Assembly: GCF_003334405.1 (NCBI RefSeq)
Contig: NZ_QOWM01000001.1
Reading direction: 5' to 3' (one strand)
From: Escherichia coli
Lineage (GTDB): Bacteria; Pseudomonadota; Gammaproteobacteria; Enterobacterales; Enterobacteriaceae
DNA: 64,000 nt
Below, one piece after another: positions 2,959-32,676 of the stretch. Numbering within the stretch: position 1 is the first letter of the stretch; every line of letters starts with the position of its first letter. The notes beneath the pieces are model-generated. The model was not told the origin of the DNA, ran no database searches, and saw only the letters and a program-made list of their open reading frames with translations. The position numbers and the translations under genes were made by a program.

Positions 2959-3144
2959 AGTGGCTCATTCACCGACTTATGTCAGCCCCTTCGGGACGTG
3001 CTACATAAAATACGAATGACGCACAACAAGGTGCCTGCCGTCCAACTTCTGATATCAGCGTAGCTATATCAACCATCGGGCGAAACGTCGAGTTAGGCAC
3101 CGCCTTATTCCATAACAAAGCCGGGTAATTCCCGGCTTTGTTGT
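2959..3144 (+). ncRNA. glmY: GlmY small regulatory RNA (~185 nt)
   Basis: Begins AGTGGCTCATTCACCGACTTATGTCAGCCCCTTCGGGACG, ends with terminator hairpin GCCGGGtaattCCCGGC plus TTTGTTGT (3120-3144). No ORF. Sits directly upstream of glrK, as known for glmY. Confidence 0.8.
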
Positions 3145-5506: not shown

Positions 5507-6830
5507 ACCTGCGCATTTATTATTGGTCGATGACGATCCGGGATTGCTGAAACTGCTTGGCCTGCGCCTGACCAGCGAAGGCTACAGTGTGGTCACGGCG
5601 GAAAGTGGCGCTGAAGGATTACGGGTACTGAATCGCGAAAAAGTAGATTTAGTCATCAGCGACCTGCGGATGGATGAAATGGACGGTATGCAGCTGTTTG
5701 CTGAAATCCAGAAAGTGCAGCCGGGAATGCCGGTAATTATTCTTACCGCGCATGGTTCTATTCCCGATGCCGTTGCTGCAACACAGCAGGGCGTTTTTAG
5801 TTTCCTCACCAAGCCTGTCGACAAAGACGCGCTATATCAGGCAATTGACGATGCGCTGGAGCAATCCGCGCCAGCCACCGATGAACGCTGGCGCGAGGCA
5901 ATTGTCACCCGCAGCCCGCTGATGCTGCGTTTGCTGGAACAGGCGCGGCTGGTGGCGCAATCAGACGTCAGCGTTTTGATTAACGGTCAGAGCGGCACCG
6001 GGAAAGAGATTTTCGCCCAGGCTATCCACAACGCCAGCCCGCGCAACAGCAAACCATTTATTGCTATTAACTGTGGCGCATTGCCCGAGCAATTGCTGGA
6101 GTCGGAGCTGTTTGGTCATGCGCGTGGCGCGTTTACTGGCGCTGTCAGCAATCGCGAAGGTTTATTCCAGGCGGCGGAAGGCGGAACGCTATTTCTCGAT
6201 GAAATTGGCGATATGCCTGCGCCGTTACAGGTCAAACTGCTGCGCGTGTTGCAGGAGCGTAAAGTGCGCCCGCTGGGCAGTAACCGCGATATTGATATCA
6301 ATGTGCGGATTATTTCTGCCACTCACCGTGATCTGCCAAAAGCGATGGCGCGCGGGGAATTCCGCGAAGATCTCTATTACCGCCTCAACGTTGTCAGCCT
6401 GAAAATTCCGGCACTGGCGGAGCGCACAGAAGACATTCCGCTACTGGCAAATCACCTGTTGCGCCAGGCGGCAGAGCGACATAAACCGTTTGTCCGCGCG
6501 TTCTCTACCGATGCGATGAAACGCCTGATGACCGCGAGCTGGCCGGGTAATGTGCGCCAGTTGGTCAACGTGATTGAACAGTGCGTGGCGCTGACCTCAT
6601 CTCCGGTGATTAGTGATGCGCTGGTGGAGCAGGCGCTGGAGGGTGAAAATACGGCGCTGCCAACCTTTGTTGAGGCACGTAATCAGTTTGAACTCAACTA
6701 TTTGCGTAAGCTGCTGCAAATCACCAAAGGCAACGTCACCCACGCGGCGAGAATGGCGGGGCGCAACCGGACAGAATTTTATAAACTGCTTTCCCGACAC
6801 GAGCTGGATGCAAACGATTTCAAGGAATGA
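5496..6830 (+). CDS. glrR: sigma54-dependent response regulator GlrR (YfhA)
   Basis: ATG at 5496 gives 444 aa ([20 protein letters not shown]...). Receiver domain, AAA+ sigma54-interaction domain ([14 protein letters not shown]) and C-terminal HTH. Overlaps the qseG end by 11 nt. Confidence 0.92.
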
Positions 6831-6854: not shown

Positions 6855-7229
<375 letters not shown>

Positions 7230-7273: not shown

Positions 7274-8464
7274 TTACAGCACCTTATGCGGGCCAAAGCA
7301 TTCGTAATGAATGTTTTCCTGCTTCACGCCCAGATCCACTAACTGTTTCGCGGTAAACTGCATGAAGCCAACCGGGCCGCAGAGATAGAACTGCATTGTC
7401 GGATCGCTGAACGCACCTTCCAGTTTGCTCAAATCCATCAGACCTTCGCTATCAAACTGACCTTTAGCGCGATCGGCTTCGCTCGGCTGACGATACCAGG
7501 TGTGCGCGGTAAAGCGCGGCAGTGACTGCCCCAGTTCCTTAACTTCATCGGCAAAGGCGTGAACATCGCCATTTTCTGCCGCATGGAACCAGTTCACTTG
7601 TGCTGTGTGGCCTGCTTTTGCCAGCGTGTCGAGCATTGCCAGCATTGGCGTTTGACCAACACCGGCAGAGATTAACGTCACTGGTGTGTCATCTGCGACA
7701 GCCATAAAGAAATCACCTGCCGGAGCGACCAGTTTCACGACATCGCCAACATTGGCGTGATTGTGCAACCAGTTGGATACCTGCCCACCCTCTTCGCGTT
7801 TCACCGCAATACGATAGCCTTTGCCATCCGGTTTGCGAGTCAAAGAGTACTGACGAATTTCCTGATGTGGGAAACCTTCCGGCTTCAGCCAGACGCCGAG
7901 ATATTGCCCCGGACGGTATTCTGCCACTGCGCCACCGTCGACCGGCTCCAGTTCGAAGCTGGTGATAAGCGCGCTGCGCGGTGTTTTAGCCACAATGCGG
8001 AAATCGCGAGTACCTTCCCAACCACCGGCTTTGCTGGCGTTTTCGTTATAGATTTCCGCCTCGCGATTGATAAATACATTAGCCAGTACACCATAGGCTT
8101 TACCCCACGCGTCCAGCACTTCCTGCCCCGGGCTGAACATTTCGTCCAGCGTTGCCAACAGGTGTTCACCGACGATGTTGTACTGTTCCGGTTTGATCTG
8201 GAAGCTGGTGTGCTTCTGCGCGATTTTTTCTACCGCTGGCAGCAGCGCAGGCAGGTTTTCAATATTACTGGCGTAGGCGGCAATAGCGTTAAACAGGGCT
8301 TCACGTTGATCGCCATTACGCTGGTTACTCATGTTAAAAATTTCTTTGAGTTCTGGGTTATGAGTAAACATACGGTCGTAGAAATGGGCGGTTAACTTTG
8401 GCCCCGTTTCCACCAGTAAAGGGATGGTGGCTTTTACTGTAGCGATGGTTTGAGCGTCAAGCAT
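7274..8464 (-). CDS. hmp: Flavohemoglobin (nitric oxide dioxygenase) Hmp
   Basis: 396 aa from the ATG at 8464 ([17 protein letters not shown]...). Globin domain plus FAD/NAD-binding reductase domain. Confidence 0.93.
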
Positions 8465-8480
8465 ATGGTCTTCCTTTTTT

Positions 8481-8513
8481 TGCATCTTAATTGATGTATC
8501 TCAAATGCATCTT
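8481..8513. promoter_or_regulatory. Inverted repeat in the hmp promoter (NsrR-type operator)
   Basis: AAGATGCATTTGAGATACATCAA on the minus strand just upstream of the hmp start, with an additional AAGATGCA half-site. Matches the NsrR operator pattern reported for hmp. Confidence 0.5.
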
Positions 8514-8791
8514 ATAAAAAATAGCCCTGCAATGTAAATGGTTCTTTGGTGTTTTTCAGAAAGAATGTGATGAAGTGAAAAATTTGCATCACAAACCTGA
8601 AAAGAAATCCGTTTCCGGTTGCAAGCTCTTTATTCTCCAAAGCCTTGCGTAGCCTGAAGGTAATCGTTTGCGTAAATTCCTTTGTCAAGACCTGTTATCG
8701 CACAATGATTCGGTTATACTGTTCGCCGTTGTCCAACAGGACCGCCTATAAAGGCCAAAAATTTTATTGTTAGCTGAGTCAGGAGATGCGG

Positions 8792-10045
8792 ATGTTAAAG
8801 CGTGAAATGAACATTGCCGATTATGATGCCGAACTGTGGCAGGCTATGGAGCAGGAAAAAGTACGTCAGGAAGAGCACATCGAACTGATCGCCTCCGAAA
8901 ACTACACCAGCCCGCGCGTAATGCAGGCGCAGGGTTCTCAGCTGACCAACAAATATGCTGAAGGTTATCCGGGCAAACGCTACTACGGCGGTTGCGAGTA
9001 TGTTGATATCGTTGAACAACTGGCGATCGATCGTGCGAAAGAACTGTTCGGCGCTGACTACGCTAACGTCCAGCCGCACTCCGGCTCCCAGGCTAACTTT
9101 GCGGTCTACACCGCGCTGCTGGAACCAGGTGATACCGTTCTGGGTATGAACCTGGCGCATGGCGGTCACCTGACTCACGGTTCTCCGGTTAACTTCTCCG
9201 GTAAACTGTACAACATCGTTCCTTACGGTATCGATGCTACCGGTCATATCGACTACGCCGATCTGGAAAAACAAGCCAAAGAACACAAGCCGAAAATGAT
9301 TATCGGTGGTTTCTCTGCATATTCCGGCGTGGTGGACTGGGCGAAAATGCGTGAAATCGCTGACAGCATCGGTGCTTACCTGTTCGTTGATATGGCGCAC
9401 GTTGCGGGCCTGGTTGCTGCTGGCGTCTACCCGAACCCGGTTCCTCATGCTCACGTTGTTACTACCACCACTCACAAAACCCTGGCGGGTCCGCGCGGCG
9501 GCCTGATCCTGGCGAAAGGTGGTAGCGAAGAGCTGTACAAAAAACTGAACTCTGCCGTTTTCCCTGGTGGTCAGGGCGGTCCGTTGATGCACGTAATCGC
9601 CGGTAAAGCGGTTGCTCTGAAAGAAGCGATGGAGCCTGAGTTCAAAACTTACCAGCAGCAGGTCGCTAAAAACGCTAAAGCGATGGTAGAAGTGTTCCTC
9701 GAGCGCGGCTACAAAGTGGTTTCCGGCGGCACTGATAACCACCTGTTCCTGGTTGATCTGGTTGATAAAAACCTGACCGGTAAAGAAGCAGACGCCGCTC
9801 TGGGCCGTGCTAACATCACCGTCAACAAAAACAGCGTACCGAACGATCCGAAGAGCCCGTTTGTGACCTCCGGTATTCGTGTAGGTACTCCGGCGATTAC
9901 CCGTCGCGGCTTTAAAGAAGCCGAAGCGAAAGAACTGGCTGGCTGGATGTGTGACGTGCTGGACAGCATCAATGATGAAGCCGTTATCGAGCGCATCAAA
10001 GGTAAAGTTCTCGACATCTGCGCACGTTACCCGGTTTACGCATAA
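8792..10045 (+). CDS. glyA: Serine hydroxymethyltransferase
   Basis: 417 aa from the ATG at 8792 ([22 protein letters not shown]...). PLP-lysine region [14 protein letters not shown]. Confidence 0.95.
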
Positions 10046-25402: not shown

Positions 25403-26293
25403 ATGGAACTACGGCATTTACGCTATTTCGTCGCAGTGGCGCAGGCACTGAACTTTACCCGTGCGGCGGAAAAACTGCATACCTCACAGCCTTCGTTAAG
25501 CAGCCAGATCCGCGATCTTGAAAACTGTGTCGGTGTTCCGTTACTGGTGAGGGATAAGCGCAAAGTCGCGTTGACGGCGGCGGGAGAATGTTTTCTCCAG
25601 GACGCGCTGGCAATCCTCGAACAAGCGGAAAATGCCAAATTACGGGCGCGGAAAATTGTTCAGGAAGACAGACAATTAACCATTGGCTTTGTGCCATCGG
25701 CGGAAGTGAATTTACTGCCAAAAGTATTACCGATGTTTCGTCTCAGACAGCCAGACACCTTGATTGAGCTGGTGAGTTTAATCACCACGCAACAGGAGGA
25801 AAAAATTCGCCGTGGTGAACTCGACGTCGGCTTAATGCGCCATCCTGTTTATAGCCCGGAGATTGATTATCTGGAGCTTTTTGACGAACCATTAGTGGTT
25901 GTGTTACCGGTTGATCACCCTTTAGCACATGAAAAAGAGATCACCGCCGCGCAACTGGATGGCGTGAATTTCGTCAGTACCGATCCGGTGTATTCCGGTT
26001 CGCTTGCGCCGATCGTTAAAGCGTGGTTTGCGCAAGAAAACAGCCAGCCAAATATCGTCCAGGTGGCAACGAATATTCTGGTGACCATGAATCTGGTGGG
26101 CATGGGGCTGGGCGTCACTTTGATACCCGGTTATATGAATAATTTTAATACCGGACAGGTTGTTTTTCGTCCCATTGCCGGAAATGTGCCTTCCATTGCT
26201 TTACTGATGGCGTGGAAGAAAGGGGAGATGAAGCCGGCATTACGCGATTTCATCGCCATTGTGCAGGAACGTTTGGCAAGCGTAACGGCATAA
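25403..26293 (+). CDS. hcaR: LysR-type transcriptional activator of the hca operon
   Basis: 296 aa from the ATG at 25403 (MELRHLRYFVAVAQALNFTRAAEKLH...). Divergent from hcaE. Confidence 0.9.
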   Translation: MELRHLRYFVAVAQALNFTRAAEKLHTSQPSLSSQIRDLENCVGVPLLVRDKRKVALTAAGECFLQDALAILEQAENAKLRARKIVQEDRQLTIGFVPSAEVNLLPKVLPMFRLRQPDTLIELVSLITTQQEEKIRRGELDVGLMRHPVYSPEIDYLELFDEPLVVVLPVDHPLAHEKEITAAQLDGVNFVSTDPVYSGSLAPIVKAWFAQENSQPNIVQVATNILVTMNLVGMGLGVTLIPGYMNNFNTGQVVFRPIAGNVPSIALLMAWKKGEMKPALRDFIAIVQERLASVTA

Positions 26294-31717: not shown

Positions 31718-31900
<183 letters not shown>

Positions 31901-32565: not shown

Positions 32566-32676
32566 TAAAAAGAATTCAGAATCAGGCCGGAGTGCTAAAT
32601 ACTCCGTAAACACGGTCGTACATCCAGCCGGTAGCCTGATTCCTTGCATTGAGTGATGTACGGAGTTTATAGAGCA

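Follow-up and report, generated by a model that had tools for sequence, protein, structure and literature searches.

What regulatory signals are packed into the DNA between the divergent Escherichia coli genes hmp and glyA, and how firmly can each be assigned to a regulator? In the stretch of 64,000 nucleotides analysed here, referred to as the window, hmp (hmpA, K-12 b2552; 7274–8464, minus strand) is an open reading frame, annotated in RefSeq, for the 396-aa NO-inducible flavohaemoglobin, or NO dioxygenase, and glyA (8792–10045, plus strand) is an annotated open reading frame for the 417-aa serine hydroxymethyltransferase, whose start at 8792 begins MLKREMN. An in-frame ATG at 8485 was considered as the hmp start and rejected; the annotated start is the ATG at 8464. 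Because the annotated starts lie at 8464 and 8792, the segment 8465–8791 that an earlier note on this DNA had singled out coincides exactly with the 327-bp intergenic spacer. This spacer is 100% identical to that of K-12 MG1655, and a 651-bp junction query, with hmpA and glyA annotated, matches 5426 of the 5426 complete E. coli genomes searched. The open reading frames, the annotation and the K-12 identity bear out the description of 8465–8791 as the hmp–glyA divergent control region, and its description as AT-rich and non-coding holds equally: the spacer has 38.8% GC and the 64-kb window 53.0%, the open reading frames inside the spacer are mechanical only (at most 58 aa), an Rfam scan of the spacer gave no RNA family match, and indels of ~23 bp occur in other genera. 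The 58-aa frame itself (8512–8688, minus strand) was rejected as coding, the ~23-bp indels of other genera falling inside it. Scanning for NsrR, MetR, PurR and FNR motifs, the check that the earlier note had proposed, located sites in the spacer for all four regulators. We are highly confident that the spacer is a common control region in which NsrR and FNR act on hmp, MetR on both genes and PurR on glyA.

The arrangement is shared across the family. When species-representative genomes were scanned with the Hmp protein, 80 loci from Enterobacteriaceae were obtained, 77 of them with enough flank, and in all 77 glyA divergently adjoins hmp across a spacer of 272–346 bp. For the conservation alignment, sequences more than 95% identical were dropped, leaving 62 non-redundant species (median identity 0.73 relative to the E. 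coli sequence), in which the conservation of the spacer falls into discrete blocks. Between the hmp −35 and the first MetR-like site, the interval 8546–8572 has a mean conservation of 0.31. A gap of ~23 bp replaces this interval in the Enterobacter, Lelliottia, Trabulsiella and Superficieibacter sequences displayed, so that, from one genus to another, the separation of MetR and the hmp promoter changes by about two helical turns.

On the hmp side, a consensus scan predicts a sigma-70 promoter on the minus strand (8509–8538), with the −35 element TTTACA (8538–8533) and the −10 element TAAGAT (8514–8509) separated by an 18-bp spacer; the conservation of these elements is 1.00 and 0.99, respectively. 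A transcription start near 8502 is implied by the predicted −10, and the FNR site of hmp, which we take to be centred at +5.5, would point to the same start. The leader carries a Shine-Dalgarno sequence, AGGAAG (8470–8475, minus strand), read from the sequence 5 nt before the ATG, and AAGGAAG is kept in most aligned species. Overlapping both the predicted −10 TAAGAT and the implied start is the operator (8491–8513) of NsrR, a regulator of the Rrf2 family. It reads TTGATGTATCTCAAATGCATCTT on the plus strand and AAGATGCATTTGAGATACATCAA on the minus strand and forms an imperfect inverted repeat of the 11-1-11 layout, which along hmp reads AAGATGCATTT-G-AGATACATCAA. Table 4 of Mehta et al. 2015 (PMC5320621), the source for the hmp operator, lists 25 further sites of the 11-1-11 type, and a palindromised NsrR matrix was made from these, with hmp itself excluded. 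Under this matrix 8491–8513 outscores every other position in the 64 kb (18.8 bits, the runner-up having 15.9), and its score was not attained in any of 30 random 64-kb sequences drawn from a first-order Markov model. The second-best match, TCATTTTATTTTAAAAAAATGTT at 49225–49247, is probably a chance one because its 15.9 bits lie below the top random maxima of 16.3–18.7 bits.

This operator is a published one, and the earlier note gave it correctly to the base. Table 4 of PMC5320621 lists the identical 23-mer as the hmp site, ChIP-seq positive with an ln(P) of −18.22 (PatSer) against a cut-off of −14.28, and Table 2 reports the glyA/hmp ChIP-seq peak in CFT073 at 3.79-fold enrichment; hmp was also bound by NsrR in an earlier K-12 ChIP-chip study, according to PMC5320621. 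The NsrR operator is conserved upstream of orthologous hmp genes (PMC1274295). In the literature NsrR is an NO-sensitive repressor of hmp, nitrosylation of its cluster by NO lowering its affinity for DNA, which agrees with the description of hmp as NO-inducible via NsrR.

The NsrR palindrome is really one strong arm and one weak arm. The strong half-site AAGATGCATTT (8503–8513, minus strand), which overlaps the hmp −10, scores 15.8 bits and ranks first among all 11-mers of the window under a half-site matrix, with 0.17 expected per 64 kb, and its mean conservation across the 62 species is 0.95. The right arm, TTGATGTATCT on the plus strand, has an NsrR score of 3.3 bits. The 11-1-11 layout is present, the arms being symmetric at 7 of 11 positions by manual count, and a repeat finder run with seed 6 reported no inverted repeat at the operator. 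Of the claim that an NsrR-type palindrome lies over the hmp promoter, then, the NsrR site and its position over the predicted −10 stand, as the top matrix match and as a published site, and the word palindrome applies only to the extent of 7 symmetric positions in 11. Among the points against the main reading are the very weak right arm and the modest ChIP enrichment at hmp. Across Enterobacteriaceae the operator is found in 77 of 77 species at 18.7–31.4 bits (median 27.0), with its centre usually 37–39 bp and at most 50 bp from the hmp ATG. The E. coli operator (18.7 bits) is the lowest-scoring of the 43 distinct orthologous operators because its right arm, owing to its likeness to an FNR box, scores 3.3 bits, compared with 6.8–15.0 in the others.

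A second NsrR-like 11-mer of doubtful function, AAGATGCAAAA, lies in the hmp leader (8478–8488, minus strand), where positions 8481–8488 of the minus strand read AAGATGCA. At 7.8 bits it takes 90th place in the window, and chance alone would give 0.55 such matches in 327 bp; the mean conservation of 8478–8488 is 0.44, and AAGATGCA occupies this leader position in 4 of 78 sequences, all from Escherichia. The AAGATGCA core also belongs to a 9-bp exact direct repeat, TGCATCTTA, with 25-bp spacing and of a length expected by chance. The 11-mer is already tabulated as a weak motif: Table 2 of PMC5320621 gives “hmp (19) AAGATGCAAAA” a score of 5.00, among the weakest listed, and “hmp (44) AAGATGCATTT” a score of 10.92. 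The earlier note had called this element an adjacent half-site; the letters are truly there, but the score is at chance level and the element is confined to Escherichia. Its functional role has neither statistical nor conservation support and is doubtful.

Could this second half-site nonetheless make up for the weak arm? An Escherichia-specific composite operator would have AAGATGCAAAA, in direct orientation 25 bp downstream, recruit extra NsrR as a roadblock in the leader and thereby compensate for a right arm that has drifted towards FNR. The exact repetition of the core AAGATGCA, the restriction of its second copy to Escherichia and the position of the E. coli operator as the weakest of the 43 distinct orthologues all fit such a design, as do the proposal that single 11-bp motifs bind NsrR and the listing of AAGATGCAAAA under the hmp ChIP-seq peak (PMC5320621). 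Against it, sites 25 bp apart are beyond the resolution of ChIP-seq, and a centre-to-centre distance of 25 bp, or ~2.4 helical turns, places the two sites on different faces of the helix. The species of Escherichia resemble one another too closely for a sequence common to them to be taken as conserved; at this position Escherichia sp. MOD1-EC7003 has TAGATGCA, and other genera have unrelated sequence. With a match of 7.8 bits for which 0.55 are expected in 327 bp by chance, we consider the composite operator unlikely. Similarly doubtful is a three-part hmp unit in Escherichia, made up of a strong NsrR arm, a right arm devoted to FNR and a lineage-specific, compensating AAGATGCA half-site. If that unit were real, a 29-bp duplication of the leader would be a natural variant with altered hmp control.

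The leader varies within the species in this and other ways. In E. coli MS14384, a 29-bp tandem duplication, TTTGAGATACATCAATTAAGATGCAAAAA, occupies the hmp leader at the equivalent of window positions ~8476–8504. Of 5426 complete E. coli genomes, 5 carry this duplication, SCU-109 being another of them, and it adds a second FNR-like box and a third AAGATGCA. The run of A residues before the hmp Shine-Dalgarno sequence (8475–8481) has an apparent length of 7 in the window and K-12 and of 8 in SCU-112 and Escherichia sp. E1V33. Over 8465–8530 as a whole, 1608 of the 5274 matched E. coli genomes are only 95–99% identical. For specialists in the control of NO stress this natural variation may be of interest.

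The weak right arm of the NsrR operator is also an FNR box, TTGAGATACATCAA (8491–8504), which matches TTGAT-N4-ATCAA at 9 of 10 positions. Because the window holds 6 such matches with at most one mismatch against 2.1 expected, the match alone is weak evidence. In the work of Myers et al., an FNR matrix predicts the hmp site and hmp expression is FNR-dependent, while the site gives no FNR ChIP-seq peak and is termed “silent”; the 9/10 box and this published matrix prediction together answer the FNR part of the motif scan. One could accordingly read 8491–8513 as mainly an FNR operator with a secondary resemblance to NsrR sites, since the 9/10 box covers the predicted hmp start and there is published in vitro and expression evidence for FNR at hmp. 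The comparison between species speaks against this. Matches of 8–10 out of 10 occur mainly in Escherichia and Citrobacter, with a few outside that clade, whereas the NsrR operator is universal, in agreement with the report that the hmp FNR site is conserved only in close relatives (PMC1274295). Conservation within the operator is moreover highest in the NsrR left arm, a part outside the FNR box, and ChIP-seq finds an NsrR peak at hmp but no FNR peak. That FNR is the main occupant is thus very improbable, and an NsrR operator with an FNR box nested in it is the reading that we retain.

In the common right arm, NsrR recognition seems to be traded off against FNR recognition across Enterobacteriaceae, as suggested by a Spearman correlation of −0.54 between FNR-likeness and the NsrR right-arm score, a raw value that ignores phylogeny. 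Such a trade-off is of possible interest for the study of NO stress, again for the specialist. As the NsrR operator encloses the whole FNR box, we propose that masking by NsrR could explain why the FNR site is “silent” in ChIP-seq.

Further from hmp, two sites resembling those of the LysR-type regulator MetR occupy the middle of the spacer. Site 1, GTGAAAAATTTGCAT (8575–8589), is nearer hmp; its minus strand departs from the 15-bp MetR consensus ATGAAAATTTTTCAT (PMC5002191) at 2 positions, and its conservation is 0.86. Site 2, CTGAAAAGAAATCCG (8598–8612), is nearer glyA, with a conservation of 0.91 and a weak match to the consensus (8 of 15 positions by manual count, the TGAA half being exact), which is at chance level alone. 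The centres of the two, at 8582 and 8605, are 23 bp apart, and site 2, the weaker partner (also written TGAAAAGAAATCC), is as conserved as site 1. In the window the 15-bp consensus with at most 3 mismatches has 8 matches against 2.6 expected, and a shorter MetR consensus of 13 bp shows no enrichment (33 matches, 26 expected); for MetR, only the 15-bp consensus combined with conservation is informative. Another 15-mer with 2 mismatches, ATTAAAATTATTCAT, lies at 26135–26149. Secondary sources, PMC5002191 among them, describe two tandem MetR sites, footprinted in the glyA–hmp spacer, and an action of MetR on both genes; PMC5002191 gives the spacing of IR1 and IR2 at metE as 22 bp. The sites at 8575–8589 and 8598–8612 are likely to be these published MetR sites. 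The statement that glyA is controlled by MetR is accordingly supported by two conserved candidates and by the sites in the literature, and it is qualified by the weak consensus match of site 2. A search for a NarL/NarP 7-2-7 element (TACYYMT-NN-AKRRGTA, at most 3 mismatches) found no match in 8465–8791.

On the glyA side lies the operator AGGTAATCGTTTGCGT (8658–8673, plus strand) of the LacI-family regulator PurR, a 16-bp PUR box (consensus ACGNAAACGTTTGCNT). A matrix of 27 ChIP-chip motifs from Table 1 of PMC3159470, with glyA excluded, ranks it first in the window at 21.1 bits, a score that none of 100 random 64-kb sequences reached, and its conservation is 0.92. The same 16-mer, AGGTAATCGTTTGCGT, is the glyA motif of that ChIP-chip study (Cho et al. 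2011, PMC3159470), and RegulonDB grades the evidence for the glyA PurR site as “confirmed”. The top matrix match and the identical published motif support the established view that glyA is controlled by PurR.

Other PurR-like sequences occur elsewhere in the window. The box TTGAAATCGTTTGCAT (6808–6823, minus strand; 13.2 bits, window rank 4) lies 68–83 bp upstream of glnB (6891–7229, plus strand). PurR regulation of glnB is published (He et al. 1993), and the PurR ChIP-chip study PMC3159470 missed glnB. A further box, GCGTAACCGATTGCAT (60069–60084, minus strand), is the published guaB–guaA motif (PMC3159470), and with this identity the window therefore also reaches the guaBA promoter. Among the other published resources, the supplementary tables of PMC4239095 hold regulon scores without site sequences.

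Between the PurR box and glyA, the promoter can be placed mainly by conservation. The probable −10 is TATACT (8715–8720, plus strand; conservation 0.98), an assignment that we infer from conservation and consensus, and this conserved TATACT implies a glyA start near 8727. From such a start, the PurR box would therefore lie at about −61 and the MetR sites at about −122 and −145. A nearly invariant block, CCTTTGTCAAGACCTGTTATC (8679–8699), separates the PurR box from the −10, its segment CCTTTGTCAAGACCTGT (8679–8695) having a conservation of 0.95, and it is probably the −35 and upstream promoter region of glyA. TTGTCA within it (8682–8687) cannot be the −35 for TATACT because the two are 27 bp apart, which is too far. 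The block also reads TTGACA on the hmp-sense strand. The glyA promoter proposed by the scan, TTGTCA-16-AATGAT, was set aside, AATGAT being unconserved and TATACT conserved.

The translation-initiation region of glyA, GTTAGCTGAGTCAGGAGATGCGG (8769–8791, plus strand), with the Shine-Dalgarno sequence AGGAG at 8781–8785, surpasses every other 23 nt of the spacer in conservation (0.98, rank 1 of 305). This conservation is well above what a Shine-Dalgarno sequence alone would need. Two small GC hairpins, GUCC-AACA-GGAC and GCCU-AUAA-AGGC, can be drawn at 8731–8755 (plus strand), close to where the glyA transcript is predicted to begin. In some species they carry a compensatory change from GTCC/GGAC to GCCC/GGGC; in others, as folds of the individual species show, they vary or are missing. 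The idea that this leader holds a robust, conserved RNA structure was considered and rejected: RNAalifold gave only an unconvincing 7-pair helix without compensatory pairs, and the folding of the E. coli glyA leader is not better than that of its shuffles (z = 0.25). Elsewhere in the window, Rfam matches above the gathering score fall at 2959–3106, 31778–31849, 32566–32675, 40050–40353, 40485–40693 and 53522–53613; they correspond in turn to GlmY, naRNA4, the iscRS stability element, ryfA, IS128 and sroE, all known E. coli RNAs.

Taken as one control region, the spacer would work as follows. NsrR, an [Fe-S] repressor, would bind 8491–8513 and block RNA polymerase at the hmp promoter; because the operator starts inside the −10 and spans the implied start at ~8502, bound NsrR would occlude the polymerase. 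Nitrosylation of the NsrR cluster by NO would then release NsrR and induce hmp. FNR on the box nested in the right arm may act likewise, adding an anaerobic repression of hmp that NO could relieve. The two tandem MetR sites would serve both genes, in homocysteine-dependent activation of glyA and in modulation of hmp, and the PurR operator just upstream of the glyA promoter would bring about purine repression of glyA. The sites, their positions and their conservation were computed here, together with above-chance scores for NsrR and PurR and consensus fits for FNR and MetR; the in vivo occupancy by NsrR and PurR and the regulatory effects are taken from the literature, and the promoter and start positions and the geometry of occlusion are deduced. 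That AT-rich intergenic DNA has produced these matches by chance, and that they lack a regulatory role, is almost certainly wrong: a GC content of 38.8% does inflate matches to AT-rich motifs, and the FNR box, MetR-like site 2 and the second half-site are each at chance level alone, but no random 64-kb sequence reached the NsrR (n = 30) or PurR (n = 100) score, the sites are conserved across 77 species against 0.31 for 8546–8572, and this conservation and published ChIP have already refuted the reading for NsrR and PurR.

The hmp–glyA spacer is among the best-characterised divergent control regions in E. coli. Every element in it is already published, and the locus is the type example itself, with no family member added. 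Its discovery value is therefore small and its use is that of a positive control, the known sites having been recovered cleanly by leave-one-out matrices and a 77-species footprint. The NsrR operator of hmp is reportedly the work of Bodenmiller & Spiro 2006 and Partridge et al. 2009, its FNR box is said to go back to Poole et al. 1996 and Cruz-Ramos et al. 2002, the glyA–hmp MetR sites are attributed to Lorenz & Stauffer 1995, 1996 and Membrillo-Hernandez et al. 1998, and the glyA PurR operator reportedly stems from Steiert et al. 1990, 1992.

Compared with the known systems, the locus mostly reproduces them. The NsrR operator of hmp in E. coli K-12 and CFT073 is the same 23-mer, TTGATGTATCTCAAATGCATCTT, at the same position relative to hmp and within the same 327 bp, and the glyA PurR operator is the same 16-mer, AGGTAATCGTTTGCGT, at a matching offset from the glyA start; neither shows a difference. 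The FNR box known at the hmp promoter is likewise the same TTGAGATACATCAA over the region of the transcription start, “silent” in FNR ChIP-seq and nested wholly inside the NsrR operator. With the metE–metR region the spacer has in common a tandem pair of TGAA-N5-TTCA-type MetR sites ~22–23 bp apart between divergent genes, although site 2 here is a poor match to the consensus when set beside known tandem sites. The closest contrast is with the NsrR operator of ytfE, AAGATGCATTTAAAATGCATCTT, a near-perfect palindrome that has the left arm AAGATGCATTT and the 11-1-11 layout in common with hmp. ChIP enrichment is 9.65-fold at ytfE and 3.79-fold at hmp (PMC5320621), and the right arm at hmp, unlike that of ytfE, is degenerate (3.3 bits) and doubles as an FNR box.
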